From: Nemertoderma westbladi
Taxonomy: Eukaryota > Animalia > Xenacoelomorpha
Assembly: GCA_032718475.1 (NCBI GenBank)
Contig: JAUCBJ010003334.1
Location: forward strand, 1-62,439
Direction of reading: 5' to 3'
Length of the DNA stretch: 62,439 nt
The translations under genes and the position numbers were made by a program. Below are positions 115 through 62,130 of the stretch, one piece after another (within the stretch, counting starts at the first letter, position 1; each line of letters begins with the position of its first letter). The notes beneath the pieces were generated by a model. That model had not been told where the DNA came from. It ran no database searches and saw only the letters and a list, made by a program, of their open reading frames with translations.

Positions 115-115
115 T

Positions 116-3997: not shown

Positions 3998-4018
3998 TTC
4001 AGGTTCTGGGGGGAGCCA

Positions 4019-22676: not shown

Positions 22677-22758
22677 GGGGCAAAAGAGGAGTAGGCAGCG
22701 ACGCCCGCTAGCCTAATATATACAAACTCATTATAATATTGATAAACTCATAGCAGAT

Positions 22759-27012: not shown

Positions 27013-27090
27013 CTGTTTAGAGTATTTTTATATTTTAGAAACTGTGATTTGTTATATTTTATAGACTTAAATCCCATTTTCTGGGAGCGG

Positions 27091-28249: not shown

Positions 28250-28299
28250 GTTTCAAATTATCGATCTGATAATCTATATGATATCTATAACTTACATAG

Positions 28300-29352: not shown

Positions 29353-30780
29353 GTATATTGAATCGGTGGACTGACCATCCATTGACTGAGGTGCTTCAAA
29401 GCGGTTTTGAACTTCTACTGTGTAAGCAACCTTTACTGCATAACAACCAACAAACCAAACGAATTGTTGTTGATTCACACCAGATATCTATTGCCCACAC
29501 CTTCCACATGCACCAATACACTGTTTCTAGAACTGCTTTCTATTGCATATTAAATACTGAATTAGCACAAAATCGAACCAGCCTAAATACAAATAGCACA
29601 GCAAGACTGACTGCTTGCTACATACTACTGCACTGCAATAACAGTATTACGCCCTACATACATTAGCTAGGGACCCCCCCCCCCCCCCCTTATTACAAGA
29701 TACTTTTAGCTTTTACTAGAGCGGCCACGCACCCATTATTATTATTATTAATTACAGAAACCTGGAAACATATTCCCTACAACCAACGTTCCATGATGCA
29801 AGGAGTTGCAAGATAACTGTTGATTCTATATACCCCAGTCAACATATGAATATTGGCGCTCGGAGGATTACATTCTATTGAACTTGGAATCGGATTCCAT
29901 TGAACTTATATTATGTATAGTATATGGCTGAACATATGGGTGTGGTAACCCAAAAAAAATTTAGAGAGTTTTATAACCAACTTTATTTTATTCAGTATTT
30001 TATTGCCTTTTTACTCCTGAATGTTGTCATTTCATAGCTCTTTGAGGAAAAGAGTTTTGGAAGAAACAAAGTTTATTAGAAACGATTACAATGTCCGTTT
30101 ATTGCTTACCTACACGACGTTCTTAGGTAATAATTTGATAATGGTTTTTGAAATATTCCATAACTATTTAGTAATTTGATATTAATTAAATACCGCATGC
30201 ACAATGCACATTCAACGTTAAGTTCAATGTCGGTTGTGGGTCGGCCACGTACATGGGTCCGTTGCTGTTCTCTTTATATATGATAAAATTTAGTGAAGGT
30301 CGGCAGATTAGTGTGCAGTATTGTGCAGCATTGTGTATGAGTGTAACTGATAACAAAGCATCTCCTAAAGAATGCGCCATATACGTTAATCTATAGCCTT
30401 TTCGTTGTGTCTAGTTTAAGTCATAACTCTGTTTACATATTTAGAGCGCCACGTCCTAAAGGAACTGTTAATATTTCCCGAAAGTGAATAATATTTGTCA
30501 GAGATTATATATTACGATCAGTCGAATAATACGGTAGGCTTACACCATCAATCATTAAGCTTCCGAATTCAGTCTCCCGGGTATATCCAGCGGGTGAATG
30601 ATTGCGCATAGACTGGCTTCGGCTAATGTTGTGTGTCAAATACTCGTCATAAGCTAAAGAATATATATCATCCAAAAGACATTCTAATTTTGGCAGGTTA
30701 AACTGTCAAAGGTCTTCAAAAGCGCAAACAGTTTCAAATTATCGATCTGATAATCTATATGATATCTATAACTTACATAG

Positions 30781-31833
30781 TTGAAATAATAGTATGCGGT
30801 TTGTTATGTACCTCTACATATTTTGCGCCTTCTTTATTTTTCATTCATTCATCCATTTATAATTTACGGGTTAATTGTATGGGGTAACGCGACCCATTCA
30901 ATAATTAATCCTATCCGCACTAAAATTAATAAATTACTGCGTGCAATCACGTTTAGTGATAGATTTTCCTCCTCTGTGCCTATTTACAAATCTTTGAATA
31001 TTTTACCTATCCAAGCGCTCTACAAATATCAGGTATTAATATTTATGTATAATGTTTTAAAAGGTAATTGTCCAAGCGATTTAAAAAAGGTTGTTTTCTA
31101 GAACTGACGCTGTCCATTCCCATAGAACACGGTCGGCTAGCCAAAAAATTTTCTATATTCCATCAAATTGTATTCTTGTATCTCAAAGATTACTAAAATA
31201 TCAGGGTCCTTTTTTGTGGAATTTATTGCCTACTTCAATTAAAGAATGTCAATCATTAAACATATTTTCTGCTAAACTAAAAAAATATTTAATTAATGAA
31301 CTGTAACTGCGGGGTCTGGTGCTTTGGTCAGTTTTCATTGCGGTGTCGCTAACGGCTCGTATTATTAACGTTGTTGTCTATTCCGTTATCCACTTATAAT
31401 TTGGGTTTAGTTTATTTCTAACTTTGCTCCTTGTGTGTAATTTTTAATTCAAATGTCGTGCCTACGTACAGATGGATCGTCACAATATATGTATTCATAT
31501 ATTTCTACGTGCTTTAATTTTAATTATATATAACGTATACGGTAGTAATTCTAATAAACACAATACGTACTGTATTAAAATCGTCAATAATCTTCTAAAC
31601 GGCGCACAGCCACGTAATAGCTTTGCTATATTGCTGTGTTGCCCTTTTCACTATTACCTAGTTAAATTTTAATTTCACATTAATTTTAAAACTTAACGCT
31701 CCGGCACTTATTTCCAGGAAATTAACTGTTTGTAATATACGTAATTTTGATTGTAATTTATTTTTGTTATGTATATTGTATGTACTTTATATATATATTA
31801 GTGAAATAAATAAATAAACTGAAACTGAAACTG
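30781..31833 (+). mobile_element. Second copy of the same LINE fragment, created by the tandem duplication
   Basis: Near-identical to 28300-29352. Confidence 0.85.
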
Positions 31834-33159
31834 GTATATTGAATCGGTGGACTGACCATCCATTGACTGAAGTGCTTCAAAGCGGTTTTGAACTTCTACT
31901 GTGTAAGCAACCTTTACTGCATTAACTGCATAACAACCAACAAACCAAACGAATTGTTGTTGATTCACACCAGATATCTATTGCCCACACCTTCCACATG
32001 CACCAATACACTGTTTCTAGAACTGCTTTCTATTGCATATTAAATACTGAATTAGCACAAAATCGAACCAGCCTAAATACAAATAGCACAGCAAGACTGA
32101 CTGCTTGCTACATACTACTGCACTGCAATAACAGTATTACGCCCTACATACATTAGCTAGGGACCCCCCCCCCCCCCCCCCCTTATTACAAGATACTTTT
32201 AGCTTTTACTAGAGCGGCCACGCACCCATTATTATTATTATTAATTACAGAAACCTGGAAACATATTCCCTACAACCAACGTTCCATGATGCAAGGAGTT
32301 GCAAGATAACTGTTGATTCTATATACCCCAGTCAACATATGAATATTGGCGCTCGGAGGATTACATTCTATTGAACTTGGAATCGGATTCCATTGAACTT
32401 ATATTATGTATAGTATATGGCCGAACATATGGGTGTGGTAACCCAAAAAAAATTTAGAGAGTTTTATAACCAACTTTATTTTATTCAGTATTTTATTGCC
32501 TTTTTACTCCTGAATGTTGTCATTTCATAGCTCTTTGAGGAAAAGAGTTTTGGAAGAAACAAAGTTTATTAGAAACGATTACAATGTCCGTTTATTGCTT
32601 ACCTACACGACGTTCTTAGGTAATAATTTGATAATGGTTTTTGAAATATTCCATAACTATTTAGTAATTTGATATTAATTAAATACCGCATGCACAATGC
32701 ACATTCAACTGACTAAACTAGAGCAATATCTAGAGAACCTATCTCTCTACTATAGTTTTGATGGTGTCTACACTAACATCATTGTGAATCAAATTCCTAT
32801 ATTGCATTGATATCCTGATCCTGAATTAATTTCAGTCAGCCTTCAAATCCTCACCAATATCTCGAGAACCAATCACTCTAGTATTGTTTTGATTATGTCT
32901 ACAGCCACTAAATAGGTTATAGTGGTTCGAATCAGTAGGAGAAAGAAATGAGTAAAGCCCCGTTGACATCCAATGGTGTGTGAGCGGTAAAGTAGTCCGG
33001 CGGTCTTGAAGCAGTAAGCTACCCGGAGCCTGTTCACACCCAACGGTAACTGATTGTCTATCTGTAGACTGTGAATTCAACAGGAAATTACATTAATTGT
33101 TTTAACATTGTTTAAATGGGCTGCGGTAAACCGCGCGGTTTAGCGCACAACTAACTGTT

Positions 33160-36477: not shown

Positions 36478-36809
36478 TTATCCTGACCCCCCCCCCCCCC
36501 CCCCCCAGGGCGGCAGAGTGCGGTCTTTATCTATGGGGCGGAAAAATGGAGTTCGTTGTCGTGGTATTCGTGTTCGGCAGGAAAAACTGGTCTAAATAAT
36601 TTAATTTAATATTGCTTGATGGGATTCCAATTGGTTTGAGGGTACTTTAAATTACATAATTTTTTATGCAATTTAATTTCAATTTAGCCAATAATTTTGT
36701 TACAAATGATTAAGGCGGCAGTGTGCCACCCATGGCGTTCAAATGAAGGACTTAAAAATTTCGAAAATGGTTTAAAGGCGGCAGTGTGCCGCCTTTGGTG
36801 GCAGGATAA
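36478..36809. mobile_element. Putative non-autonomous DNA transposon (MITE)
   Basis: TTATCCTG/CAGGATAA ends and repeated GGCGGCAGwGT..GCC subterminal motifs. Confidence 0.45.
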
Positions 36810-36835
36810 GTAGTAATAGAGTTATCCTCTTTATA

Positions 36836-37008
36836 TATAAAATCTCTGGTACGACAAGAAAATAAACCTTGGTCCGATCAAATATATTTTTCTTGGTCCT
36901 TAGAAGTAAAAATTTATGTAACATAAAATCTCTGGTACGACAAGAAAATAAACCTTGGTCCGATCAAATATATTTTTCTTGGTCCTTAGAAGTAAAAATT
37001 TATGTAAC
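36836..37008. repeat. ~86-bp tandem repeat x2
   Basis: AAATCTCTGGTACGACAAG...TTATGTAAC repeated. Confidence 0.9.
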
Positions 37009-37443
37009 TTATCTTTGGTATGCAAAGGGTTTTAAAAATTTAGAATTCATATTTCATACTGATAATTTTGAATTCATACAAAATTTGTTACAGAGTCCAA
37101 TTAATGCATCGATTATTTTTATTCTAACATTAAGTCCATTTTTTGATCTACTGGTGTTTTTTTCCAACGTTGGATTCACTGACCACTACACAATTTTTCA
37201 GTTTTTCCAAAAATATACACATATTGTGAAATTGTTGCCCTTCGTTTAGAGATTTATATAGTATTATTATTCATACAGTCATATATACAGTATACATATT
37301 CTGATAGCTTCGAGAACATTGCAATCTGTTGTCTGATGATTGGTTTCAGAGTTTAGTATACAACCCTATGTGATTACTATACTGCAGTACTGACGTGCAT
37401 ATTATACTGACTGGAATTATTGTCCAGTCTGCATGTCTGCCTA

Positions 37444-37680
37444 TGTGGTGTAAACGCTAGTATTTTTTGCACCACACGGACTATATATTTTTGGTAGATA
37501 TCAATGTCAATCAGTCACAGGTTCTGTCAGTCGACAATTAATAGTTAGGTTGTTTGTATTACTGTTTATATTAACCTGTGCCTGTACCGTCTGATATAAT
37601 AAAGCCCAAAGGAGTTCTTGTGCGTATGAACAAAGTACTATAGTTTTCATCACCTGCATAGGTTTACCCGGACTACCACA
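37444..37680 (+). repeat. Candidate 5' LTR of BEL/Pao element 2
   Basis: TGTGGT...ACCACA inverted ends, TATATA and AATAAA inside, followed by AGTTGGCA; no second copy in the window. Confidence 0.45.
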
Positions 37681-38503
37681 AGTTGGCATACGTCAGTACG
37701 TGAATGGACGATGACACCGTGCGGTATTCACAGTGCAAAAAATAGGTAAAAGCACTAAACTGCTAAATGCAGAAATGCATTAAAGTTGAAATTCTGATAT
37801 TAGGCCAATTAGCTAGTGCAGTAGTGACACTTTACCTTTAGATGCCGGACCGGTCTGACGGTCTAAGGCCTCAGCAGCGACTGCTTGACGGTACGGTCAC
37901 TCTTGACTGCATTAGGCCTAATCACCCTAGAGCTATTCAGCTATAGGCAGATAGGCCCTATTACCTTATTACAGTATTAGGTCAGTAGGAAGGAGGGGGC
38001 CTACACCTACACCTACTGCTGTAGGCCTACCAGCCTACTGTATTGTCACTTTGTATTTGGTATTCGGCCTATGTTCAGGTAGGGCAGTCTGGCAGTAGGG
38101 GATTAGTTGAGTTGACTTTGACAGATATAAAGCTCAATTCTCTGTCAGCCTTTTCTGTCTTTAGGTAGGTACTGTCAGACGGTAAGCTACCGGTACTTGT
38201 CAGCATGTTAATCGGTGCGGTACCTACCTTTTATTGTGTGTATCTGCAAGCAAACCCTCTGTCAGTCTTTCGGTACCAGTATATATACTGATATATATAT
38301 ATATTTATATTATGGTGCTTTGTTTGTCTACTAAGGTAGGCTAGGCTAGGTTTAGGCTTGAGACTAACCAACTACTGAACTAGCCCTAAAGCTGTAAAGT
38401 ACCAGTAACAAAACCTTTTTTTCGTGTAATTTTTAATACTGTAACAAGTACTTATACCCTGATACCTGTCTGCCTGTGGGCCTGCTACTTATAGTCAATC
38501 ATA

Positions 38504-41500
38504 ATGGCTACAGGAACCGGTAGTAGTGATTTTACCAGTTCCACAAATCCTAATGAAGTAGATAAAAATAATTATGTAGCCTTTCCCTCACGGGAAGGGA
38601 ATGATTCTATAGACATAGAATCTCAAAGCCCTATTTCGCCATCCACTCCAGACAGTCCTAGTGATAGGCTCAACCTGGCTGGAGCTGGATCAATTCAGAA
38701 TGTTGAAAATCATCCGTCTGCTCCCATAAATAGTGGAGCTTTTAGGGCCACCATTGGTGGACACAGGGCTCATTTCACCCGAAATTACAACTTGTTTTGG
38801 AAGGATTTCAACGAAAGAAATGTTACATTTTCATTGATTTTAGAAAGACACAAAAAAGCAGTGGCAATAATAGAAACAATTCACAGTTTATATATTAAGG
38901 TGATAGATGAAGTTGAGAGAATGGGCGATTTTCAACAATCCGAGAAATTTAAATCGGAATTTAAAATAGTATATAGCGATTTAAAAGGAAAGTTAAACAA
39001 AATAGAAATGGCTTTAGAACAATTTAAACAGGCCAATTTAGGCTTTAATTCCGATGACCTGCCATTAAATGAAGGCAGTTCAGAAGGAAAATCCATCTCT
39101 CGTAAAGATTCCTTAACCACAACATCCAGGGAAACAATAATACCAAAAGCGCAAAAGGCTATTGCTGAAAAAAGGCGCAGAGAGTTACAATACAAGCAAC
39201 TTGAAAATATATCAGGACTTGAATTAAAACAGGCTGCCCTGGACCGTCAATTGAAGTTAGAACGGGCAAAAAACGAGGTGGAATCGGCAGATTTGGATAG
39301 TCAAATTGCAATAGAAGATGACATCTGGTTACAAGAACAGCGCGGCTCTAACAGAGGTTCAGGCAGTGAAGTAGGATCTTGGTTGCAAGGAAAAGATAAT
39401 GTATTCCTGCAACAGCAACAACACTCACACACTGACACTGCCCTTGGGCTAGGTGAATGTGATATACCTGAAGCAAGACTTGAAAGGGGTATAAATGAAA
39501 ATACTTCCACCTTTATAGATAACGTTAGGCCTGATCCATTATGGGATGTCAATGTTTGTAGGCCGAGAAATGTCAACTTTAATTTACCTATATGTACCGG
39601 TATTAGTGACATTTTTGAGGAACCTGCACCAGAGTTAGGTTTAAATACTAATGATGTGCATAGGGCAGTGGGTTAGGCAATCAAACTGCGATAGGTCTAT
39701 TTTAAGCCCTAATGCAGAAGAGTATATTCCTCATTCGCAGATACGCCATACTAATACATATACTAGTACCAGTACTTCCAATTATACTGGAGATAATAAT
39801 TACTTTCCTCATGTTCAGGTCTCTAGTGCTGTTAATTCCTTTAGACCAATACCATCAATAACTCATTCTTTATATACAAATCATTATACTGATACCAGTA
39901 GGCCTATATATTCAGATATTAATGTGAATTTGAATCATGGATCTGGATATAATGATCTACCTGTACCTAGGTCTTTATTAGATCACCTAAATGAACCATT
40001 ACGCAGCAGTATAATGAGTGTTAAATGTTCTGAGGCACCTTTATACAGTCCTAGAAACTCAAATTCAATATTTAACGCATTACACAGTACTCCTCATTCA
40101 GATATGGGAGTACTGCCAATTAAATTCAAGTAATAATTTAGAGCAGTCATTGCATCCAAATGGTGAAAGAGCTACAACATCACAATATAATGTCTATAAT
40201 CAAACCTATAATGTGGGTTATGGTTATAATACAACACAGACACAAATTAGTACTGATGCGGCTCGTCTCTGCAATAATCCTCTAGTGCAGGGTCAATATG
40301 GTATTAACAGAGGTCCTACCCATGCAGTGTCTGAAAATAATGCTGGAGGCATAGAGAGATTGCTGCAGAATAACAGTATGTACTATCATGATTTGTATAG
40401 AAACAGTTCTGTTCACAGAATGGATGGTTTAGTAAATCCGCCATTTATTCCTCAGACAGCAAGTCAAAGTGTGTCAGACGGATTTATTAATAGAACACCA
40501 AACCATTCTGGAACAGCTAGTAATCAAAATTCTGAACTTATATCAGCCTTTCAAATGTGTAATGCATTAAATATTTCTGCTATTGAGCGACTAAATACAA
40601 TGATGTCATTACCAAAAATGGAACCACAAAAGTTTAATGGGGAAACCGGTTTATATATAAATTTTGTTTCTTCATTTATATCTTATATCGAATCAAAACG
40701 GCTATCAGAAATGGAGAAAATGATGGCTTTAACAACGTATTTGGGACCCGAGCCTCTTGAATTAGTCAAATTTTTTGTGGGAATACCAGGAGGTTATGAA
40801 GCAGCATGGAATTTGCTTCATGATCGTTACGGTCATCCCAATGTGATAATCCAACAAATAATAAATGAATTAACTGAAAAGGTTGATTTGCACTCTAATA
40901 ACTACACAATTAAAAAAGAGAAACTGAGAGCATATTCTGATAAAATAACCCAAAAAGTATTAGTACTACGTTACTGCTTCAGAAATTAACTCTTCGGATA
41001 ATTTAAAGAGAATTGCAGTAAATTTTGAAGCTTGGATGTATGATAAATGGAAACGCACAGCTCGATCAATTCGTCAGAGGTTTGGTAGAGAGCCAACATT
41101 ATTCGAACTGACTGTGTTCATAAAAGAAGAGTCGGATATTATGAATGATGCTGTATTCAATGAGAGACCCGGAGGCAATCAACAACAACAGTCCTCCAGC
41201 CAACAATCCAGATCGAAATCAGGAAGTCAAACTCAACCTATATCTAAATCAGGCGAACATTCAACTAATCCAATGCATCCTCTTCGCATAACAACTATGA
41301 ATACAGCAGTTGAAGATGTGGCCCTTAATCATACTTCGAAAGTGACGCCATCTGTGATAAATATTGGTGTTCCTAATTCTACAACACATCAGAGAAATCA
41401 GCCATCTGGTGGACAAAATAAACCAAATAGCATGCAGAATGACAAGGTGAGAGACAAAGCAAATGTAACCTCTCAACCACATCCGAGCAATTCTAATATT

Positions 41501-44500
41501 ACTAGTGCTAATCGTAATAATACATGTGCTCCGGTTAGCAGTAAAACTGATTCGGGTTCAGCCAGAACAAAAACGACTAAATTCACTTGTTCTTATTGCC
41601 AAGAGGGACATACATTATATCATTGTCCTAGTTATAATACCTTGGATGTAAAAAAAACAATCAAATTGGCTATTAAATAAGAGGTTATGTCTAAATTGTA
41701 CGAGCTCAGGTCATGAGACTGATCAATGTCCAATTAAAACTTATAAGTGCAGGATAAATGGGTGTACAGAAGCACATAATAGAGTTTTACATTGGGTCAT
41801 AGACCATCTCAAGACTTCTGGTTCGATCGGTTTGCATTTCTCTTCTGTCAGTAAAAAAAACGAATATGAATCACAAACAATTAAAAGTAACAAATGTAAT
41901 TCTAATTCTACTGTCTGGCTTTCAGTCGTACCAGTTTGCATTTCTATAGATAATAAATGTGTAGAAACATATGCACTACTTGATACTGGTTCAACAACTA
42001 CGTTGATTGATAGAAGTATTATTGACCAGTTGGATATTGCTGTAAATTTAGAAGTAGATATTAAAGCAAAGGGTGTATTTTCAACTACCTTTCAGAAGGT
42101 TGGCTCTATTAATTGTATAATAACTCCGGTTTCAGATCAAAATGTTAGCGATCCTGGATTTAAAATTACTGCTAAGGATGTATTAGTTGTTAATAACTTC
42201 AAATATAAATTTGCAAATGATTTGAAGAAGGTTGATTTAAGATCAATACCTGAACTGCAACCATATGTCCCACAATTAAATAGACAACCGACTGATTACC
42301 CCTATGTATCAATGCTTATTGGACGAAATTTCCAGGAAGCTCTTTGTGAGACCCCAATTATTGTGGGAGGTCCTGAAGAACCCTCCTTGATTAGAACACC
42401 TTTTGGTCTTTGCCTAGTGGGAAAAATTACTTTAATCTCTACTTTAACTGATAACTCTGGTCTACAAACGCAAGTATCTTTACATCATATCAAACATACT
42501 TGCTTAGATTACGACACAGTATCTATGATTAAACAGTCTCTTGGTATAGAGACTGTAATAAATCCATTGGATAGTGAAGAGGTTGTTATGTCTAGAGATG
42601 ACCATGAGGCTCTAAAAATCCTCCATCAAACAACTATCTTAAAAAATGGTCGCTATTGTGTATCAAAACTATGGAAAAAGCGACCACCAACTCTTATTAA
42701 TAATTTACATTTGGCTAAAAGAAGACTCGAACAGTTGCTTAAACGTTTAAATAAGGATGAAGGTAAGTATCATATGTACCATAATCAAATAATGGAGTGG
42801 GTACAGAAAGGTTATGCGATCAAGATGGATCCAAATGCATTGACATTTACAACAGGACAAACTTATTATTTAATCCATCATTTCGTAGTAAATGAAAAAA
42901 AGCCAGGATGCATCCGCATTGTAACCGATGCCACAGCTGATTTCAAAGGCATGTCTATGAATTCGCAACTGTATGCAGGTCCTTCTCTCATTAACTTATT
43001 AACGGGTGTATTGTTCAGGTTTCGTCGTGGCAGCATTGCATTCGCATGTGACATTGAAGCAATGTTTTTGCAGATAGAAGTCACAGAAGAAGACAAGGAT
43101 AGGCTGAGACTACTATGGAAATCTCCTGAATCACCTGAATTACTTGAAGTTTATAAGATGGTCAGACACCCTTTTGGCCCTAAGGATTCTCCATGCATTG
43201 CCAACTATGTGGTTAAACAAACTGGCATAGATAACCAAGATAAATACGGTGAAGAGGTAGCAACTGTCATTGATGAATCATTTTACGTAGATGATGGATT
43301 ACGTTCAGTGAATTCAACCAGTGAAGCCATTACTGGCAGATAACTTGAAAGAAGTTTTAGCTGCAGGTGGGTTTACTCTAAAGAAGTTTATTTCTAATGA
43401 TAAAGGTTTATTGCGTCATCTTAATGAGGATGAACTGAGTCCAATTTTAAACCTAGATTTAGATGAATTACCAGTTACCAGGGCGCTTGGCGTAATCTGG
43501 GATACCAATAGAGATGTGTTTACCTATCAATATAATATCAAAGGACATTAAGGACCTTAAGTACATTCCTGCATTCTTTCATTATTACGTCAGTCACTGC
43601 AAACAATCACTCATAGCGTCATAGGCAGATAGGTAAGTGTGTTAGAGTCTGAGAGTACATGTAGAGCTACCAGCATACTGCTAATAGATAAATGTAAACT
43701 ACTAAGTTACATTGATCGCTTGTTGATTTAGTGCATTTAATACTGGCCAAGATTAGCAAGTAAATCACACAACAACCAATCAAACAGAACATCCCATAAC
43801 AACTTAAAGCATTTATAAAACAGGCAATATCATTGGATGTTCACAAAATGATCGCTTGGGTTTTTACTCTCATGTCAATGGGGGGGCTATTGCTACTGAA
43901 TCTTGTGACGACGATTACTATACATTTATGCTTGAACAATATGTTAATGACGTTAAATATGATGAATATTTACCAGTTCAACCCATTAATACATTGTGTT
44001 CTCAACTTCAAACAAGGACTAAAAGAGTGCCAATGTTTCAACGCGTTAAAGATTTGACAATCGATCAACGTTTAGATTACTTGATTGATACGGAATCCAA
44101 CCTAACTAAACTCAAGATTAAGATAGTCTGGCTCATTAGATTATCCAAGTTTGCTGTGAAAGGTACTGCTAAACCTCATATTATTATGGCAGAAGAACTA
44201 AGACATGCAGAAGTGTGTCTGGTACGATATGCACAGAGGCGGGAATTTCTTCAGGATATTGATAGAATTTCTAGTGGCAAACCAGTCACGCGTAAAAGCA
44301 AGCTTAAGAACTTAACACCTTTTCTCGATGGCGATCACATCCTTCGTGTTGGGAGTAGAATAGAACGTGCCTTGGTTCCCTATAGTACAGCATATCCAAC
44401 TATTCTCCCAGCACAGAGTTCTATAACCAGGGCAATAATCTGGCAAACTCATATAAAGTGTGGCCATATGGGATTCTCTGTAGTAGCTAGTGAGATTCGC

Positions 44501-45275
44501 AAATCCTTTTGGATTCTAACAGCTCAACGAACTATTAAGACTTTACTTACAAAGTGTTTCACTTGTAGGAAAGTGCGTGGTCGATTTCTTGAACAAATAG
44601 AAGCTCCACTACCAGTAACTCGTTTGACAGCATATCTTCCTCCATTTACATTTGTAGGTGTCGACATGTTTGGCCCAATGAATGTGAAATATGCTAGAGG
44701 TACTATTAAAATATATGGGATATTATACACTTGTCAAAATTGTCGAGCTATACACTTAGAGTTGGCTGTAAATAAATCAGCTGATGCCTTCTTAAATACA
44801 TTGCATCACTTTTGTAGCCGACGTGGCAAACCTCAACAAATAATAAGCGACAAAGGAACAAATTTTGTTGGTTCTGACTCGACAATCAAGTTGCTTGAGC
44901 AATTTGCCAAAGAGGAGAGTGTTAATGCATTTTTAAATAAAAATAGCATTGATTGGAAGTTTGTCGATACTGATTCGGATGTAGATTGGTTATTTCTCAC
45001 TCCATATGCCCCTCATACTGGAGGTTTTTATGAGCGTTTGATTCAGTCAACCAAACGTATATTACTTGCTTCGTTAGAAGATAACTTGGTTACCGAAGAT
45101 ACTTTAAACACTTACTTAGTAATAGCTGAAGGCATAATGAATAGTCGACCATTGACTGCCATTAGCAGCGACCCTACCTCGCCCAAACCACTGACTCCCC
45201 AACACTTACTACTCCAGAGGGAAGCAAGAAACATCCCTGTCGGTGAGTCTGATGATACGGATATCTATAGTTCAT
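38504..45275 (+). pseudogene. gag-pol: Decayed BEL/Pao gag-pol (element 2): multiple stops and frameshifts, RNase H missing, integrase truncated
   Basis: KFNGE gag, CSYCQEGH knuckles, LLDTGS, CDIEAMF/YVDD, HIKCGH..CFTC, DMFGP, SDKGTNF, GGFYERLI. Confidence 0.92.
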
Positions 45276-45282
45276 TGATGTT

Positions 45283-46853
45283 ATGGAGTCCTACACCGTC
45301 GCTAAGTTCATATGTAAAACTCTCGATAACCTCATTACGGCGGTTCCTTGTTCCTTTATTGACTACGAGTGGAATGAAGTTATCGGCCACGCCTTCAAAG
45401 CGGTCGAGAATATTACACCGGGAGAGACAAAAATGCTCACCGTCATCGATTCCTGGGACGAGAATGGACCGTTCGACATCCCTACGATTACCGATCTCCT
45501 CGGTGCGGAGGAACCACTCATTTCCTCAGATGGGGAAGAATTATGGCTACAGGAAGGTGTTCTACTGTCCACCCCAAAGCGACAGCTCGATCCGGAAATC
45601 GCGTACGAACTGGCTGCCAAATGGGTTGCCTCGGCCGAACCTGCGACGGAAGCAGGCGTTTCCACCCCACTTGGCTCTGGTAGCCCCGCGAGGGAGTTAG
45701 TCACTACCTTCGCGTTGAACGACTTCGGCGACATATGCCAGAGGTTATCCCCATATCCTTTCCCGGGTGGCGAAGACTGGTCTTCGGAGATTCCGAGTAC
45801 CAGCACCCAATGGACCCGCTCAGCGATACTGGTCGAAAGGGTCCCAGCGCTGCGCCGACTCCCGAAGATCTCCTCGGAATCCCTCCGTCGAAAGCCCCGG
45901 CACCTCTTCGCCGACCAGCGGTGGCAACTACCCCCTCCATTCTACAGGATCCTATGTGACTAACCCGATGGTACGCCGAGCAGACCGAATGGATCTACCG
46001 CCAGAAATGGTCGTCCGAGATGAGACCGGCAGGACATAAAGAAGGTTATCGGAACGAGAACCTACTACGCCAAAGCCCAGCCTTTCGCGGGCTACAGGCC
46101 ACAGCGAATATTCAAAAGAGCGACCGACGACTCGAGTATTATGTCGGCGTCCCAATCCCGATCTTCTTCGGTCGGGAGATGCAGTTAGAGATATGCGCAG
46201 ACTGCGGTTCGGAGCAGTGCCCACACGGTAGAAGAAATCAAGTAACCGATTTGTGCCTACAGCTCCACGGGATTCTATATTGCCCATACTGCGCGACATC
46301 GGGACATGATGTTTCAGTTTGTCCAACCCTCTATAACCTCTGCACAACTTGCGGTTTCCGTAGACATTCCGCTAGCCCCCGCTGCAATATAAAATGTCCT
46401 ACAAAGGACGTTACCGCTATGGAAAATTTGGTTATGTTCGAAACCTACGCAAATAGCCACATAAAGACCAAGGTACGGAGAAACGCTCGGAATATCACGC
46501 AGGAAATGGCGTGCGGGTATTTTGCCTTCCCGGAACGCCTCCATACGACAGCGACGTTACCATTCCATTACGTGGATCTGTTGCTAAGGGCCGGATTATT
46601 CGGCCCATTCGAGATCCTTAGACGCTTATATTCGTATAAACAAGAGTACGGTGTCGGAAAGTGGTTCCTAGAGGCGAGCAACACCGAGTTGGAAAGACGG
46701 ACCGATATGATCCCGCTGCCATCGAAAGGAAGAGCCGCCAGGAGACAAGCCGAAACGTTGCTCACGATGGATGTCGATGCTCCCCTACCAGCTCTAGCGA
46801 TCGACGAGAGTCGACGGGCGAAGAGGGGAAAGGCGTATCGGAGCAAGAAATAG
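45283..46853 (+). pseudogene. Frameshifted, 5'-truncated accessory ORF with zinc-knuckle cluster
   Basis: CADC, CPYCATSGHDVSVCPTLYNLCTTCGFRRH..C, FETYANSH..R...GYFAFP and a basic tail align by eye with the 23578 ORF C-terminus. Confidence 0.75.
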
Positions 46854-47026
46854 AGGATCGGGATATTCCAGGAACATTTATATTGAACATTTATTTTATA
46901 TATATATTAACTCTAGGCCAAATTAATCAAGACTATGCAATATTACAATTTTGGGTTTTTTATATGGGAAATGACCTACGCAAACTCGATCTACCGATAG
47001 ACCTCACGAAGGTCATTGGGGGGGAC

Positions 47027-48214
47027 TGTTCGCGGTATTTCAACTTTTCCTAACGCGAGTTGAATATTTTTTGGATTTATTTAAAATGATTATTCCGATA
47101 TCACTACTAGGTGCGGGAACATGGGTTTTGGGCACACTCAATGAACTGGGGGCGATTTATGGGCGAATATTGGGGCGACTTACGGGGTACAGGACTCATT
47201 TCATGTATATAAGGGCCAGGGGGGGAAGGAAAAGTTAAGCAGTATACAGGTTTACCTGACTACTATTAGGCCTAGCCAACTTCCTGCTGCCTGTAGAGGT
47301 GGATTTGGTAACTCGCTCGGTCTAAAGGACACGGGCTGCCCTTAGTGGTTCCTGACCAACAGCAGTTATTACGAGCCTGAAAAGGACATCGGAAAGTCTG
47401 CTGCTTGTGTCAGGGATTTGCGATGGGAAACGACGACAGACCCCTAGCCAAGCCGTACTGGTTCTCGATGATCAATCTCTTCGGGGTTCGTGAGGGGTGG
47501 TACGGACACGCGAATGGGTCGACCGACTAACAGAGGAAGAGTGCGACGACGACTGCCTTCCTGGAGTGGGTGCCACGACCAGTGTTAGTACGAGCCTGAA
47601 TAAGGACTCGGAAAACCACCAACCGTTGGGGCTCACAACGGGCTGACAGACCCCTTAGCCAAGCCGTACTGGTTCTCGATGATCAATCCCTTCGTGGTTC
47701 GGGAGGGGTGGGACGGACACGCAACGGGGTCGAAAGACAAAGGACTGGACTCTACTGGCCTACCGACTGTTCGGAGCAGTTTCTCGGCTGCCGAAGCGAC
47801 TACGAGCCTGAATAAGGACTCAGAAAGCCTAGGTGGTTGGGTCTCTGCGATGAACCGACGGACCCCTAGCCAAGCCGTACTGGTTCTCGATGATCGATCC
47901 CTTCGGGGTTCGGGAGGGGCGGGACGGACACGCGAACGGGTCCACCGACATGACAGACTCCTAGCCAAGCCGTACTGGTTCTTGATGACCGATCAATTCG
48001 GGGTTTGGGAGGGGTGGTACGGATACGCGACAGAGTCTACCGACTGGACCGACCCTTAGCCAAGCCGTACTGGTTCCTGATGACCGATCCCTTCGGGGTT
48101 CAGGAAGGGTGGTACGGACACGCAACAGGGTCGACCGACACCAACACTACGGTACCAAGACTAGGACCGAGGGAAAATCGGGGAACATTAGTTAGGCTAA
48201 AATCTGAGCGAACA
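47027..48214 (+). repeat. Putative LTR (end at 48214, or alternatively 48343)
   Basis: Follows a PPT; TGTTCGC...GCGAACA 7-bp inverted ends; TATATAA at ~47206; alternative end GTTACA at 48343. Confidence 0.6.
47350..48133 (+). ncRNA. Array of structured RNA repeats (five ~83-nt A units, three B units; order B-A-B-A-B-A-A-A)
   Basis: Nested stems with a UUCG-loop apex and compensatory changes between copies. Confidence 0.75.
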
Positions 48215-48419
48215 GTGGGTAATTAAATAATATACTGTAGGGATTTATATTGTCGTGTTATATTATTGTGAATAATTTGGTGTATATTGGTTTGGGGAAG
48301 CCCAACTTATTCTCAATCAAGGTTCAACTGTAGGGAAGTTACATTAAAGAGTATATCCAACCAATGAAGCTTTTCCTCAACCGCAATCTTGCATTTAAGA
48401 ATGTATTCCTTCTCCACAA

Positions 48420-51400
48420 TCAATATCCGGTGACTGGCCGGGATTGCGTGGTCTGAAAAGTTCCGCCTCCAGCATCGGCGTTTTCCCCCATAGTGTCGGG
48501 AATAACGGCAACAGCGATGGTGATGGAATGGAGACAGTACGCTGTCTCTCCGTCGTCTACGAGGTCGTCGGGTGTCGGCTGGTCTACGGGTGACCGGGAC
48601 AGGGAGTCGGGAATGGCGTGAGATTTACCCTTGCACCAGGAGGTAGTGAACTGGTATGGCGCCAGCTTGGATTTTAGTCGTTGTATACGGGCGTTTTCCA
48701 CTTCCAAGAACGATTTGCAGTCTAAGATGGTGACCAGCGGTTGATGGTCAGTGACCAGGGAGAAGGTGGGGAGCCCGAGGACGAAGTTGCGGTATTTTTG
48801 GATGGCCCATACTACCGCTAGAAGTTCCAACTCAATAGTGGTGTATCGAGACTCTGTGGGTGTTATAAACCGAGATCCGCATTCTATAAGGCGCCACTCT
48901 GTCCCGTGGCGCTGGAGAAGGGCGTAGCCGAGCCCATTGAGCCGAGAAGCGTCAGTTACGAGCTTAGTGTCGGCGGAGACATCGAATGGGGCCAGAACCA
49001 GGGGTGTAGTTAAGGCCGCCTTGGCGGCGTCGAATGCGCGATTGTGGTCGGTTGTCCAGATGTATGGCGATTTCACCGATAGGAGCGGGCGTAGTGGTAG
49101 GAGCATCTCGGATATCTCTGAGGAGAAAGGAGCGAGTTGTTCTACGAGCCCGATGAAACTTCGGAGATCGGTTAGAGTTTCTGGACGAGGGAAGGAGGCT
49201 ATAGCGGAGAGTTTTGCGGGGTCGGCGTGGATGCCGTCCGTTCTGACCAGGTAGCCGCCGAATTTTACCTGGGATTGGGCGAGCTGCACTTTACCGGGGT
49301 GCAGGCAAATACCTTTTTCCCTGCAGCGTTCGAGGAAACGGTGGATGGACACCAGATGTTCCTCTAGTGTGTCGTCGTAGAGTAAGACGTCGTCGACGAT
49401 CTTTATCATCCGAGGAAGTCCCTCGAGCGCCGCGTCGCCCCGTCTGTTAAACTCATCTCCGGAAGAGATAAGGCCCATCACACTCCGGGTGTGTTTATAC
49501 CGCCCCCATGGCGTGACGAACGTCGTCAGCAGCTGGGACTCAGGGTCAAGGGGGACCTGCCAGTATCCATGGGCGGCGTCGAAGACTGAAAAGTACTTTG
49601 CAGTCCGCGAGATTTCGGCGATTTTTAGACGGGGGTTTGGTGTCGGGTAGTATGGCCTCTTTACTTGGGAGTTCAGGCCGCGCAAGTCCACGCAGAGGCG
49701 CAGTTTTCCGCTTGGCTTGCGTGTTACGGTAAGCGGGTGGGCCCAGTCGGTGGGTTCTTCCACGCGCTCGATAATATCGCGGCGTTCTAGATCGTCAAGA
49801 AGAGTTTTTACTTCGTCGCGAAGTGCGATGGCGATGGGTCGAGCGCCTTTGACATGGTAAGGCGTCGCACCCTCCTTGAGTACGATATGCATCGCGGTAC
49901 CAGGGATGGTTGGTAAGGGGGTTGCTTCGTCGTCGAAAACGTCCCCGAATGAGTTGAGGAGGTCCCTGGCTGAGGGCGCGCTGTCTGCGCCTGTGGGTGT
50001 TGCCGACTTCGTCTCGCGAACCGTAGCCGAAGAAATCGGGAGAACCGCAGCGGGCTGGGGGAAACTTGACGGGAGTATCCCCAGATCCATGCAAACCGAT
50101 TTGCTAAGGATCAGTCCCTGCGTCTCCGGAGAGATAACGATTTCCGTTGTAGCGGAATTTTGGCCGGAGGAGATGACGGCGGGTAGGCGACCGCGAGTTT
50201 GTATCGGTAGTCCGTCGGCCGCGACGAGATCCATGCTGGAGGAAGGTAGTAGATCCCTCCCGACTCCCCCAAGTTGGTGGAACAAGTTCTCGTTGAGGAG
50301 TGTAGCTGCCGCGCCGCTGTCCGGAAGCGCGCGTTTTATCATGCCGAGTCGAATACCGGTAGTGGAGTTAGTGAGGGTTACAGCGAGGTAATCCAGTTTG
50401 CATACCGCCGCGCGGTATTCTAAGCGGTTGATTGAGTCGCGGTAAAGCACCGTGTTTGTAGAAGAGGGTTTCTTTGAGGATCCGCTGGATCGGCACACCT
50501 TTCGGAAGTGCCCCTTTTTGCCGCAGCCGCTGCAGTTAACTTCGCGGGCAGGGCATGCAGATTTGTCGGAGTGCTTTACTTGCCCACAGTTTCCGCAAGT
50601 GTGGGCGCGATTGTTCCCCGGCCCAGTGGAGGAGGATCTCCAGGGATGCTGGGAACCGGTCGATGGGGGCGTCGGAGCACCCTGTCGCATTGGAGAACGG
50701 CCGCCGCGCTGTTTGTATTGGGAGATTTTAGAAACCGAGCGCGAACTCCCTAGTACTTGGGTGTTTTTAGCGCTGGACTCCCAGTTCTGGCAGATAGTGC
50801 GAGTTTCTTCTAGTGAGGGTCGGGGTAGTAATTTCAGGAGTTCTTGTTGAGTCTCGGTACAGTACAGCCCAACGAGAATCTGAGTGACTATCTGGTTGTC
50901 CCGGCACTCCGCGCACAGTTCTGCGAGTTCGGCGAGGTGTTTTAATGACCGATAGAAGTCATCGAAAGTTTCGGTAGCGCCCTGGCGGCGTCTGTGGAAT
51001 TGCATGCAGTCGAGAGCGATGCTGCGTTTACCGCGGAGGTGTTGCTGCAACCCATCGAGAATCGTCGCCGCGTCCACCTCGCCATTGTCCGGATCCAGTT
51101 CCAGGGTGTAGCGGACAACGTCGTGTAGGCCTGATCCCAGGGCGGTGAGGAGTGTGTATACTTGTTCGCTGCGTGGGAATGTTTCTGCGCTCTGGCGGCG
51201 GAGATTGCTGTCCCAACTGTCCCGCCAACGGCGGAAGGCGGACAGTTCGACCGAAGTATCAATGCGGTCTAGATTTCCGATATCTATGGTGCGGCGACGC
51301 GTGGGGGCCGCCTGTGGGGGATCGGGTTGTCCTATGGGATTATCGGCGAAGTGCGGACGGCCGAGGTGGGCGAGAATGTCCGCTAAACGGCGGTTAGCAG

Positions 51401-51725
51401 CCGCTTGTTCTTCCCGATGTTCGCGTTGCTGCTCTTCCAAACGGCGGTTCGCGTTTTCCTGTTGCTGCGCCATGAGTTCCAGGAGTTGCGCCATGCTGGG
51501 TTGGCCACCGGTAGCCGCGTCGGTTTCCTCGAAGCGGGCGGGTGTATCGGCGATCCGAGCGTTGAGTTTCTTGCGAAGCGTTGCATCGGATGTTTTCGAT
51601 GTCGTTGGGATACTGGCGTCAGCGCAATACTGAATCAGTTTTGAACGATCCAACGACGCGACCTCGGCGGGTGAGAGGTCCGACCAGCAAGGTTCCTCAG
51701 CGGAAGAAGCATCGGAATCCGCCAT
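48420..51725 (-). CDS. gag-pol: Gypsy (Mag-like) single-ORF Gag-PR-RT-RNase H, truncated before integrase
   Basis: Two CCHC knuckles, LPDSGA, DAAHGYWQ, IVDD, TDAS/ELE/TDH, DSLSR; frame then runs into unrelated sequence. Confidence 0.92.
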   Translation of the reverse strand: MADSDASSAEEPCWSDLSPAEVASLDRSKLIQYCADASIPTTSKTSDATLRKKLNARIADTPARFEETDAATGGQPSMAQLLELMAQQQENANRRLEEQQREHREEQAAANRRLADILAHLGRPHFADNPIGQPDPPQAAPTRRRTIDIGNLDRIDTSVELSAFRRWRDSWDSNLRRQSAETFPRSEQVYTLLTALGSGLHDVVRYTLELDPDNGEVDAATILDGLQQHLRGKRSIALDCMQFHRRRQGATETFDDFYRSLKHLAELAELCAECRDNQIVTQILVGLYCTETQQELLKLLPRPSLEETRTICQNWESSAKNTQVLGSSRSVSKISQYKQRGGRSPMRQGAPTPPSTGSQHPWRSSSTGPGNNRAHTCGNCGQVKHSDKSACPAREVNCSGCGKKGHFRKVCRSSGSSKKPSSTNTVLYRDSINRLEYRAAVCKLDYLAVTLTNSTTGIRLGMIKRALPDSGAAATLLNENLFHQLGGVGRDLLPSSSMDLVAADGLPIQTRGRLPAVISSGQNSATTEIVISPETQGLILSKSVCMDLGILPSSFPQPAAVLPISSATVRETKSATPTGADSAPSARDLLNSFGDVFDDEATPLPTIPGTAMHIVLKEGATPYHVKGARPIAIALRDEVKTLLDDLERRDIIERVEEPTDWAHPLTVTRKPSGKLRLCVDLRGLNSQVKRPYYPTPNPRLKIAEISRTAKYFSVFDAAHGYWQVPLDPESQLLTTFVTPWGRYKHTRSVMGLISSGDEFNRRGDAALEGLPRMIKIVDDVLLYDDTLEEHLVSIHRFLERCREKGICLHPGKVQLAQSQVKFGGYLVRTDGIHADPAKLSAIASFPRPETLTDLRSFIGLVEQLAPFSSEISEMLLPLRPLLSVKSPYIWTTDHNRAFDAAKAALTTPLVLAPFDVSADTKLVTDASRLNGLGYALLQRHGTEWRLIECGSRFITPTESRYTTIELELLAVVWAIQKYRNFVLGLPTFSLVTDHQPLVTILDCKSFLEVENARIQRLKSKLAPYQFTTSWCKGKSHAIPDSLSRSPVDQPTPDDLVDDGETAYCLHSITIAVAVIPDTMGENADAGGGTFQTTQSRPVTGY

Positions 51726-51763
51726 CGTATTGGGAGCTTAGTTCTGAAGTTCAGTACTGAAGG

Positions 51764-51778
51764 CCACTCGCAGCGCCA
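51764..51778 (-). promoter_or_regulatory. Primer-binding site, tRNA-Ser-like
   Basis: TGGCGCTGCGAGTGG directly after the LTR on the minus strand. Confidence 0.65.
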
Positions 51779-52029
51779 TGTGATGTTCTTAGTTCTTGAT
51801 ATAATAAGATATAACATACAGAAACGTATAGAACAGAATAGACCGATATATAATAATATGCCTAGCGACTTCAGTACTGTGTGGTATCTTGACTGAGCAG
51901 TTGCACCTGCTTTTATATAAAAAGCCCCAACAGAATGGAACGTATATATATCTATCCAATCACCATGAACTACTGTCCAGCAGTGTATATGGGGCGAGCC
52001 ATATAATAATACGTATGTATGTCATTACA
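51779..52029 (-). repeat. 5' LTR of the minus-strand Gypsy element
   Basis: Minus strand TGTAATG...CATCACA, abuts the PBS; contains TATA-like tracts. Confidence 0.75.
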
Positions 52030-56239: not shown

Positions 56240-56559
56240 CAGTACCTGTCGGTGTCAAAATATCATTTCCAAAAAATTACAAACAATAAAATAAGGGAGA
56301 AGGAAAACAGTGAGACATCCTCGTAAACACAACCTATACTTTAGTAGGTACTTTTAGATCGTTGCAAAGAATCAACTCAATGAACTAACAACTAAAAGAA
56401 CAACTAAAATGGACCAAAATTTGCAAACAAGCGAAACAACGAAATGAGAGAAGGGTTTCATTTTCAAAGGGTTCGCCCGCTATCAGTATACTGTAGACCT
56501 GAGTACTGTAAACTGGTCAGCGTCCTTCCCATATATGCAGCCTAGCTAGTTTTTGCTAT

Positions 56560-57228
56560 TTTTTTTACTCTCGTTATTTTTACTCTCGATATTTTTACTC
56601 TTGATATTTTTATTCTCGATATTTTTACTCTCGATATTTTTACTCTCGATATTTTTACTCTCGATATTTTTACTCTCGATATTTTTACTCTCGATATTTT
56701 TACTCTCGATATTTTTACTCTCGATATTTTTACTCTCGATATTTTTACTCTCGATATTTTTACTCTCGATGTTTTTACTCTCGATATTATTACTCTTGAT
56801 ATTATTACTCTCGTTATTTTTACTCTCGATGTTTTTACTGTCAATATTTTTACTCTTGATATTTTTACTCTCGATATTTTTACTCTCGATATTTTTACTC
56901 TCGATATTTTTACACTCGATATTATTACTCTTGATATTATTACTCTCGTTATTTTTACTGTCGATATTTTTACTCTCGATATTTTTACTGTCGATATTTT
57001 TACTCTCGATATTTTTACTCTTGATATTATTACTCTCGTTATTTTTACTCTCGTTATTTTTACTCTCGATGTTTTTACTCTCGATATTATTACTCTCGAT
57101 ATTTTTACTCTCGATATTTTTACTCTCGATATTTTTACTCGCGTTATTTTTACTCGCAATATTTTTACTCGCAATATTTTTACTCGCGATATTTTCACTC
57201 TCGATATTTGTCATGTCTCGATATTTTT
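56560..57228. repeat. 15-bp minisatellite (TTTTTACTCTCGATA)n, about 44 units
   Basis: Directly visible; produces spurious ORFs in several frames. Confidence 0.97.
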
Positions 57229-59409: not shown

Positions 59410-60295
59410 CGGAGCCCCTAAAGGGACATGAGAAAATTTTTTTTTTTTTTTCGCTAACTCGTGCGAACGACTTAGTATGTCGTGCGAACGACTAACTAAG
59501 TCGTGCGAGCGACTTAGTATGTCGTGCGAACGACTAACTAAGTCGTGCGAACGACTTAACTAACTCGTGCGAACGACTTACTAACTCGTGCGAACGACTT
59601 ACTAAGTCGTGCGAACGACATACTAAGTCGTGTGAACGACTTAACTAACGCGTGCGAATGAACGACTTAATAACTCGTGCTAACGACTTACTAAGTCGTG
59701 CGAACGACATAGTAAGCCGTGCGAACGACTTAACGCCTTTAACGACTGAACGCGCTCTGTTAATATCGACGTACTTTAACTTAGGCCGACAATACAACCG
59801 ACATATTGTAGCAAATTATAATATCTTTAACATATTAATTTTACTTTAACTTATTCAGTAAATAGTTGTATTATCTACGGTCAGCGCTGCTAGATAAACT
59901 GATTATAGTGTCAGGTGTTGTTGCTGTGTTGATGAACAACATTCCCATCTCACCATTGTATCAAACCATTGTTTTGGGGGGAGGTGAGATAGGTCCTACT
60001 ATTTAGAGTATTGTAGAATATTGTGACTCCGCTACAAAATTGTGACTCCACCACAATATTCGATTTAAATAAAGTACGTACCCGTATTTCACTTTCAGGC
60101 TCTCGTTTCATATTTCACTCAGTCGCTTACTCTCGTTCTTAATAAAATTAATTCGAAAAAGTAATGCGTAACATCCCTAATCAAACCAGTGGGTGCATTG
60201 ATGGATATTCCCGGAAAATGATTTGGTTGAACGTGTATAACGTAATATTAGTATGTCGTTCGCACGACTTACTAAGTCGTTCGCACGACATGTCT
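59410..60295. mobile_element. Foldback-type non-autonomous DNA element with ~20-bp subterminal repeats
   Basis: CGGAGCCCCTAAAGGGACATG left end, (CTAAGTCGTGCGAACGACTTA)n at 59455-59735, inverted copies at 60250-60295 ending CATGTC. Confidence 0.7.
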
Positions 60296-60352: not shown

Positions 60353-62130
60353 CAGTCCCTATCTCATGCTGAATATAATTTCTCAAACTGGGTATCATTT
60401 GCATTATTTCGTTATTGCATTATTAAGACCCGGCGAGGTTAAACTAACTCAAACTAAATACTGGCGCCATGGTTTGAGTGATTTTGACCTTCATTCTGTG
60501 CAACACTTAGCTTTCCTACCTGTACCTGATGGTTGGACTTTGGTTGAATGAGACACGGCATTGTCGTATTCCAAGTAAGTCTCAGTCTGCTACTGGAGCC
60601 CTTTAATTGCTGGGCTGCGTTACATACTATTACTGGCACTGTACTTTGTTTGAATATAGTTACTGTCCTATGTTAATTTTATTGGTGTGGTGCTTTACAA
60701 GACATGTCATTGTAAAATATTAATTAATAGGGTTATATTTAATTTAGGTACAGTAGTGGCTCATGGCCTTCTGCGCGTATTAGTTACTAATTTTACAAGG
60801 ACAATGGCAGCTTTTATAATGTCCATTATTTATTTATTTTCTAAGTTGTGTAGGAAGGGTAGGTGTTGAATGCACCTCATCCACACCCACACACCCCGAC
60901 CCCCTCCCCTTTTATATTTTAAAGTGTAGATAAGGCGCCACTAATTGAATGCCACCCCAAATTAGATGATTTCACAAACAAAAAAAAAATTTTAGCACCA
61001 AATATATTTTTTTGTAGTACCAATTTACATCCCCCAATTTTGAATATCTCACCAAAAACAATTATTCATCCCCAAAAAACAATAATTAATTCCCACAAAA
61101 ACAATTTTCCATCCCCCAAAAAACAATTATTTATCCCCGAAAACAATTATTCATCCCCCAAAAACAATTATTTTTCCCCGAAAAACATTTATTCTTCCCC
61201 CAAAAACAAAATATTCATATCCCAAAAACAATTATTCAATCTCCTTAAATTAATTACTTGTCAACCAAAAACAATTCTTCCAGCACCAAAAATTTTATGG
61301 AAAATGTAATTAGGGCCTAATCAAATTCATTCATTATTAAAAATTTCCATAAATCAAACAAAATGTTTAATATTATACCCCTTATACCCCTATACCCGAT
61401 CCCTCGGGTGAGTACAAAACAAAGACCCAATTATAAAGACCTGCATAATCTTGTAACATGTTAACTTTCGTTTATTGTTTTGGTTCCCGCAACACGCCTC
61501 TGTAACCTGCTCCTTTACTAACCAGCTCCTTTAAATGGCAATAGGACCTAACGCACTTTGGGACCTAACACTCTTTGGGTCCTAATGCGACTTTATCTCT
61601 TTGTTTTTTACAGAACAGAACTCAACTTTGGTCAGAACGTTTGTCAGAACGTCAGAACGTTTGTCAGAACGTCACCCGACGATCCCCGTAACAATAGTCT
61701 GCAACTAAGAGTCTGTTTATTTTGGTAGAATTTTTTATTATTTTGGGGGAATAAGCAATTGTTTTTGGTGTTGAAAAATTGTTTTTGGTGTTGAAAAATT
61801 TATTTTGGTGTTTGAATAATTGTATTTGGCGTGACTTTATTTTATTTGGTATTGAATCATTTTTTTGGGGTCACATTATTTCATTTGGTGTAAAATATTT
61901 TTTTTGTGAAATTTTCATCAATTTTGGTATGTCTTTAATTGGTAGCCTAAATAAAGTTCATAATTAAATTAATAAAATAATGTTGATATGTATGAGTCAA
62001 ACATATTTTATAAATGTAATCGAGAAGAAATACCTTCCGTTTGACCTAGTAAGAGTGAGTAAGAGTGAGTCACTAAGAGTGAGGTAAGAGAATAGTTTGA
62101 GAAACGGTATCTAGAATGAGATAGGGACTG
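60353..62130. mobile_element. Non-autonomous Tc1/mariner-type element
   Basis: 15-bp perfect TIRs CAGTCCCTATCTCAT/ATGAGATAGGGACTG flanked by TA on both sides. Confidence 0.75.
60931..61950. mobile_element. Nested decayed foldback element with ~21-bp AT-rich repeats in inverted arms
   Basis: (CCCCAAAAACAATTATTCAT)n left arm versus (TTGTTTTTGGTGTTGAAAAA)n right arm. Confidence 0.55.

Follow-up and report, generated by a model that had tools for sequence, protein, structure and literature searches.

In a 62,439-nucleotide stretch of Nemertoderma westbladi DNA (hereafter the window), two LTR elements from very different families encode diverged versions of one accessory protein just ahead of their 3' LTRs. 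The versions share a zinc module and, in the complete element, this module follows a domain that is likely a DEDDy-type 3'-5' exonuclease. The reading favored here, at a probability of roughly 0.6, is that this anatomy belongs to an RNA 3'-end nuclease accessory; judging from its sequence, the protein probably helps the elements process RNA ends or blunt small-RNA silencing by the host. The DNA of the window looks animal-like and is rich in repeats: two elements each of the BEL/Pao and Ty3/gypsy types were recognized along with one LINE fragment, and PHROGs and PADLOC gave no meaningful match. One of the Ty3/gypsy elements (1-4250) is short and seemingly intact, with 114-bp terminal repeats and a GC3 of 0.76. 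Short repeats are found at 56427-57228 (a 15-bp minisatellite), 59438-60291 (a 21-bp palindromic array with an inverted partner) and 61050-61830 (another 21-bp array, with its inverted copies at a distance of about 620 bp).

The complete element, designated element A, is an 18.6-kb BEL/Pao retrotransposon at 9664-28249 on the forward strand. It is bounded by 1159-bp LTRs (TG..CA) with 3 differences between them and by a 5-bp target duplication. The gag-pol gene (12983-21117, forward strand) is assigned to BEL/Pao from matches to Peptidase_A17 (E 6e-36), DUF1759, DUF5641 (E 6e-21) and an integrase zinc domain; no env family was matched in the element. The accessory gene (22717-27012, forward strand) consists of two in-frame segments, 22717-23565 and 23566-27012, with one stop between them, and its protein has at least 1148 residues. 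The first segment, of 282 codons, has a Cys/His cluster near its end and no Pfam match. A 2.2-kb leader with two 290-bp repeats (10823-12982) precedes gag-pol, and a 1.6-kb spacer with two 165-bp repeats (21118-22716) precedes the accessory gene. A tandem duplication of 2.46 kb (27769-30216 and 30250-32709, 99.3% identical), either real or an assembly artefact, begins within the 3' LTR.

The second version of the gene lies ahead of the LTR of family C, the name given here to an abundant LTR family whose copy in the window has the gene in truncated form. The original prediction treated 45283-46853 as a single open reading frame; it is instead divided between two forward-strand frames, with the frame change near 45.95 kb. 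The first surviving frame begins at a junction at 45279 and ends at 45963 (45271-45963 as the ORF was called), while the second spans 45960-46853 and ends in a basic tail. The zinc and FETYA motifs on which the prediction was based are present where it had placed them, all within the second frame. Other parts of its description also held, as the DNA and LTRs of the two elements have nothing in common and both proteins end in basic tails (8 Lys or Arg in the last 20 residues for family C and 11 for element A) a short distance from the LTR (173 and 78 nt, respectively). The family C copy in the window is dead, being truncated and out of frame. One contig from public run X5 skips 45308-46467 and represents a deleted variant of the family. 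Of the 16 differences displayed for the gene, the 15 assigned to codon positions (5 third, 7 first and 3 second) presented no third-position excess, these differences being few and preselected. Neither longer family C copies nor related loci were found in metagenome or viral contigs, and a 20-mer from the LTR repeat had no match in viral contigs.

The zinc module is about 150 residues long and is located at 46170-46634 in family C and, 20 kb from there, at 26062-26520 in element A, both on the forward strand. It is composed of three CxxC or knuckle-like motifs (46194, 46281 and 46341 in family C) and a helical segment with the order F/W-E-x-x-A, R, G-aromatic and Y (FExxA at 46437 and G-aromatic at 46515 in family C). 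As predicted, the knuckle linker is six residues long in both proteins, and FETYA and GYFAF of family C align with WEANA and GVYAF of element A. The E, A, G and a later Y past the knuckles are invariant in all six rows of alignment A1 and are among its 16 invariant columns. A direct comparison of the family C second frame with the element A protein gave 26.6 bits, a score reached by none of 1000 full shuffles and by 32 of 1000 shuffles with Cys and His held fixed; thus, the pair alone is borderline.

The case for homology comes from database relatives. When the second frame was searched against 1.84 billion representatives, five matches were identified at E <= 0.001, of which P0001-P0004 carry the zinc module. 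The fifth, P0005, is an Ig-like repeat protein matched over only 28 residues and was discarded as a relative. A profile search added P0010 (3 matches among 2071 candidates), for five clusters in all, none of which has an informative name. The element A protein matches P0002 with an E of 9e-11 in a set of 7 proteins. A test profile was built from the relatives only, with neither window protein included, and 1388 six-frame segments of the window were searched with it. The element A copy was recovered independently at E 2.7e-9; the value for the family C copy, E 5e-19, is circular since the profile seeds were found with that copy. Just these two pass E 1e-8, and the gag knuckles come next at E 0.0075. 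With Cys and His fixed, the element A copy scored 35.3 bits against a shuffle maximum of 29.0 (0 of 1000) and, with Cys and His masked, 5.1 against a maximum of 4.3 (0 of 1000). When the family C copy was added to the masked profile, 3 of 1000 shuffles reached the score. The predicted homology is therefore weak for the pair directly and solid through the profile of the relatives, and for the zinc module we consider it very probable. A similarity limited to generic CCHC residues, which the prediction had named as the outcome that would count against it, is not what was found, as the match holds with Cys and His fixed or masked. Identity between the window copies is 22%, so that they are no closer to each other than to the database relatives (21-30%); four of the five inner branches of a domain tree were unresolved.

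The module has no family in Pfam, NCBIfam or PHROG. The Pfam zf-CCHC model reached at best E 0.49 for the family C copy and E 0.0026 among the six rows, and the central motif of the family C copy has the exact C-x2-C-x4-H-x4-C spacing. The nearest solved structures by zinc profile are knuckles of Lin28, Air2 and Gag nucleocapsid (E 0.003-0.9), with matches that cover only the first third of the module, namely its first two knuckles. The Atlas gave a score of 0.87 to DUF8363 from fungi, which is below the threshold of the tool and is taken as a lead only. Structure prediction of the six rows was uninformative (mean pLDDT = 37.1), and a word-index search with element A residues 400-1030 as a single protein found no homolog among 3406 candidates. 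No description of the module was found in the open-access literature searched. In some relatives the module occurs alone or duplicated. P0002 has two copies (44% identical) past an exonuclease-like amino terminus, in which the Glu of the first exonuclease motif is absent.

The putative exonuclease of element A is located at 24841-25620 on the forward strand. Its motifs are D-x-E at 24910, the D of GDLQ at 25210 and Y-x3-E at 25537; counted from 23566, the acids are D449-x-E451, D550 and Y658-x3-E662 in the order ExoI, ExoII and ExoIII. The motifs line up with those of E. coli RNase D and Pol I, and the last acid is Glu instead of Asp in both element A and P0004. An Atlas search with residues 420-720 gave a score of 0.92, with 25 of 30 matches in the PF01612 set (3'-5' exonuclease). 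In NCBIfam, two RNase D models only were matched, with E values of 0.02 and 0.04 that are far under the cut-off, and there was no match in Pfam. Set against RNase D and Pol I of E. coli, a thin profile gave a probability of 16.6% versus 0.3% for a reversed control. Structure prediction from the single sequence was poor (mean pLDDT = 31.8). On motif order and these matches, the domain is likely a 3'-5' exonuclease of the DEDDy type.

P0004 was found by its zinc module alone and also matches the element A exonuclease (35% identity over 74 residues). It shares the D-x-E, GD, DTQ and Y-x3-E motifs, and the distance from motif to zinc module is nearly equal in the two proteins (179 vs 178 residues). 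Since P0004 matches both domains of element A, the exonuclease-then-zinc order may be regarded as a recurring layout. The expectation of an upstream exonuclease in the relatives was borne out in part: it is clear in one of the five clusters (P0004), and three of the five called proteins have none. The amino terminus of P0002 appears exonuclease-like by eye and was not detected by a profile of element A and P0004. A word-index search with P0004 returned only itself among 4869 candidates, no match to P0004 was found in phages, and no related loci were found for P0002, P0004 or P0006.

The start of the family C gene had been described as weakly resembling the segment that follows ExoIII in element A, and the resemblance is suggestive. 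What survives of the gene starts at 45279, two codons ahead of a candidate ExoIII Glu at 45286. The 21 residues from this Glu were the best of 8008 ungapped 21-mers when compared with the ExoIII tails of element A and P0004 (a score of 42, with the next at 26, in a post hoc test); against that, the local profile score of the tail was equalled by 42 of 200 shuffles. The 21 residues at the junction are probably a remnant of ExoIII, in which case the cut at 45279 possibly falls inside the last exonuclease motif. Beyond the possible Glu, the first frame is an acidic and proline-rich linker without homologs, and a direct comparison of its middle with the element A accessory protein detected no similarity.

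The original prediction regarded the gene as an old, retained feature of a lineage of LTR elements instead of a one-off transduction. Its denial of a single transduction is upheld since the module recurs in five database clusters at 21-36% identity. The claim as a whole is half supported, and retention in one LTR lineage stays a conjecture: the family C pol lies outside the window, so retention and swapping fit equally, and lateral exchange is an equal rival because the published DEDDy ORFs, in the accessible text of their description, are common to unrelated retroelements (PMC5408684). We give only slightly less than even odds to a cassette that is swapped among unrelated mobile elements (BEL, gypsy and others), for which family C need not be BEL/Pao. 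The GC3 of family C (0.57-0.62) is nearer to that of the gypsy elements in the window (0.63 and 0.76) than to that of the BEL elements (0.27-0.43), although superfamilies are poorly told apart by GC3. The window copies show no special closeness to each other, and the module is solitary or duplicated in some relatives; both agree with exchange, as do the DEDDy ORFs that Terminons have in common with two LTR lineages of rotifers (PMC5408684) and the DEDDy exonuclease of Dada DNA transposons (PMC3706591). In contrast, the GC3 values of the element A accessory gene and gag-pol match (0.43 vs 0.42), as expected after long residence, and both copies occupy the same slot just ahead of the polypurine tract. 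Swapping concerns the history of the cassette and is compatible with the RNA 3'-end nuclease reading.

For an RNA 3'-end nuclease accessory, the following mechanism may be proposed. The zinc knuckles would bind single-stranded RNA, by their likeness to Lin28, Air2 and nucleocapsid, the DEDDy-type domain would shorten the 3' ends of RNAs that act on the element, and the basic tail could aid nuclear import or RNA binding. With RNA-binding knuckles and nuclease in one chain, the zinc module would hold the RNA ends that the nuclease trims. Among possible functions, the single best guess for the substrate, though it falls short of an even chance, is the small RNAs of host silencing or their precursors. 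The processing of primer or cDNA ends may be put somewhat lower, and all other functions together share the same standing.

With the same anatomy, the nuclease could serve replication by trimming a self-made primer, or by polishing or proofreading cDNA ends in the particle. Such a role is unlikely overall, and primer or cDNA processing gains weight from what may be a self-priming signature in element A. The primer-site position past the 5' LTR (10823-10833, forward strand) is the exact complement of LTR positions 10098-10108, and a TGG-type tRNA primer site, which is typical and not defining for BEL/Pao, was not found there. The 11-nt complementarity was attained by 3 of 2000 dinucleotide shuffles in a single post hoc test, and in a cofold the paired stretch grew to about 18 bp, wobble included, which is a hint of self-priming. 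Self-priming depends on generating a 3' end on the RNA of the element itself. Element A is long, and the processing of 3' ends on element RNA is the role proposed for the rotifer DEDDy ORFs in the available part of their description (PMC5408684). Against a replicative role, the test concerns one element, the family C 5' LTR is missing, and packaging of the accessory protein into the particle is a supposition, as its gene is separate from gag-pol. Comparable complementarity is absent past both candidate ends of the family C LTR and past the LTR of the upstream BEL element. Self-priming is known in Tf1/Sushi, Tcn1 and TAR elements, and the accessible text reports no need for an extra nuclease there (PMC6317226). 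For BEL/Pao, none of the open-access titles listed concerned self-priming. A bolder combination, in which an ancient, swappable cassette of a DEDE exonuclease and a three-knuckle RNA-binding domain resides in several animal LTR families and would mature the self-made primer in BEL/Pao, is more doubtful again. If true, a self-priming BEL/Pao element would come with an enzyme of its own for primer trimming or proofreading, and this enzyme may permit its 18.6-kb size.

The setting of the family C fragment bears on how the gene came to be cut. Immediately upstream is a decayed BEL/Pao element (37369-45278, forward strand) with a 312-bp 5' LTR (37369-37680, forward strand), gag and a partial pol that is cut in the integrase. 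This LTR has no match elsewhere in the window. The integrase homology ends at frame residue 487, four codons short of the junction, and DUF5641 is missing. At 43542-43875, 334 bp of abundant sequence are present where a run X3 contig has 825 other letters of BEL pol. The upstream pol was considered as the parent of the accessory fragment and discarded: the 5' LTR is unrelated, GC3 steps from 0.30 in the BEL element to 0.62 and 0.57 in family C, and contigs leave the window sequence at 45278. The contigs were from four public runs mapped on 36500-49500 (at most three samples, the best of which may be the source of the window itself), and two of them stop matching at 45278 and continue with about 450 and 801 letters of unlike sequence. 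In run X1, the summed contig depth, which is not a copy number, lies at 47-98 across the BEL gag-pol, leaving aside a single bin that contains an inserted repeat. It climbs to 6,000-14,800 in the accessory fragment and to 30,000-75,000 at 46916-48651, and is 100-147 beyond. The same steps were present in runs X2, X3 and X5. The roughly hundredfold step at 45278/45279 marks an abundant family. Among the 15 of 60 joints listed from the public-run contigs, the 45278/45279 joint is absent, and the junction may thus be specific to the haplotype or assembly at hand.

Family C is identified as an LTR element by its polypurine tract, a G-run at 47018-47026 directly before the LTR start, and by its TG..CA LTR, of which a single copy is visible within the window (47027-48513, forward strand) and no target duplication is seen. 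The LTR begins with TGTT and has a TATA-like box at 47206. Five 94-nt repeats with spacings of 211, 211, 95 and 95 are present at 47434-48139. The original prediction placed the LTR at 47027-48214; its start is kept and its end is doubtful, as the abundant sequence reaches about 48513. The alternative end at 48214 is a 7-bp inverted match. With AACA as the last letters up to 48513 and the stop of a gypsy contig at 48514, the LTR probably ends at 48513. The adjoining Ty3/gypsy element (48514-52029, reverse strand) is cut just past RNase H at 48514 and is the likely target of the family C insertion. The simplest history would be an insertion followed by one deletion. Family C would have inserted into the minus-strand gypsy element, leaving the clean LTR end at 48513, and a later, single deletion would have taken away the 5' part of family C along with the 3' end of each neighbor, BEL and gypsy, thereby fusing the BEL integrase to the family C accessory gene.

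An improbable alternative to this deletion takes 45279 as a true terminus, so that 45279-48513 would be an abundant 3.2-kb unit, LTR or non-autonomous, with a captured gene remnant, left between two host elements by recombination. The unit starts with TGTT and ends with AACA, the depth rises at 45279, and one run X5 contig begins at 45281, although the deletion variant at 45308 could explain that start. It does not sit well with the G-run tract and second TGTT start at 47027, the several-fold higher depth from 47027 on, the absence of a target duplication in the flanks of the unit, or a cut placed where the last motif of the exonuclease would be. Convergence of generic zinc knuckles, in keeping with the borderline direct score and the empty single-protein search with the element A region, is highly improbable given the profile tests with Cys and His fixed or masked (0 of 1000 shuffles), the helical segment conserved past the knuckles in all six rows and the link that P0004 makes between the exonuclease and zinc domains.

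The role of enzymatic extra ORFs in LTR retrotransposons is an open question and, according to the accessible text, the rotifer DEDDy ORFs have never been assayed (PMC5408684). Very diverged versions of the cassette are carried by a BEL/Pao element that inserted recently, its LTRs differing at 3 places, and by another, abundant LTR family, which argues for long selection. As a domain without a family in Pfam, NCBIfam or PHROG, the zinc module provides a handle for finding further carriers. Should the nuclease act against small-RNA silencing, it would count as a rare counter-defense enzyme of transposons; if it serves self-priming, it would represent a new replication strategy for BEL/Pao.

An exonuclease accessory in BEL/Pao may already be on record. 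Malik, Henikoff and Eickbush reportedly described, in 2000, an RNase D-like domain in the Cer7-type BEL elements of C. elegans, and the zinc module is not known to be part of that description. The exonuclease accessory of element A would then have a precedent in its own superfamily. Nothing on an exonuclease in Cer7, Belpaoviridae or semotivirus was found among the open-access papers listed. Cer7 carries env according to the accessible text (PMC554778), and element A has no env match. A survey of env-bearing elements mentions neither exonuclease nor zinc in its available part (PMC13524379).

The tandem CCHC-like knuckles find their best counterparts in Lin28, Air1/2 and Gag nucleocapsid. In nuclear RNA surveillance, the DEDDy nuclease Rrp6 works with the knuckle protein Air2, and this pairing may be used as a working analogy for the element A protein. 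Unlike Lin28, Air2 or Gag nucleocapsid, the window proteins have the helical FExxA segment, and in element A a single chain, encoded by a mobile element, holds both the knuckles and the putative nuclease. Dada transposons of Laccaria and Ectocarpus also have a DEDDy exonuclease with zinc fingers in the same protein; in contrast to element A, their nuclease is inside a DDE transposase of a DNA element with no LTR, as far as the accessible description goes (PMC3706591).

The closest known systems are the bdelloid Juno and Vesta LTR elements and the Terminons. As their description is available, they carry a DEDDy ORF3 that was acquired at least two times and whose activity is unassayed (PMC5408684), an account repeated in the accessible portions of reviews (PMC5718144, PMC6431247, PMC6338049). 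Like the accessory gene of element A, ORF3 is a separate ORF past pol in an LTR element; it encodes an RNase D-like nuclease with an altered acid set, as the element A gene likely does, and a Cys-His-Cys motif was noted in two of the bdelloid proteins (PMC5408684). Element A differs in that its carrier is BEL/Pao, the protein is at least 1148 residues long and the acids are D-E-D-E, vs the DEED reported in the accessible text for ORF3 (PMC5408684). The module of three knuckles and a helical segment, present in element A and family C, is undescribed for ORF3 in the available account, the comparison being by description only (PMC5408684). LTR elements with an accessory nuclease gene are already known; what sets the present case apart is the fusion to an unclassified three-knuckle module, its occurrence in one genome in two LTR families that have diverged widely, and the hint of self-priming.
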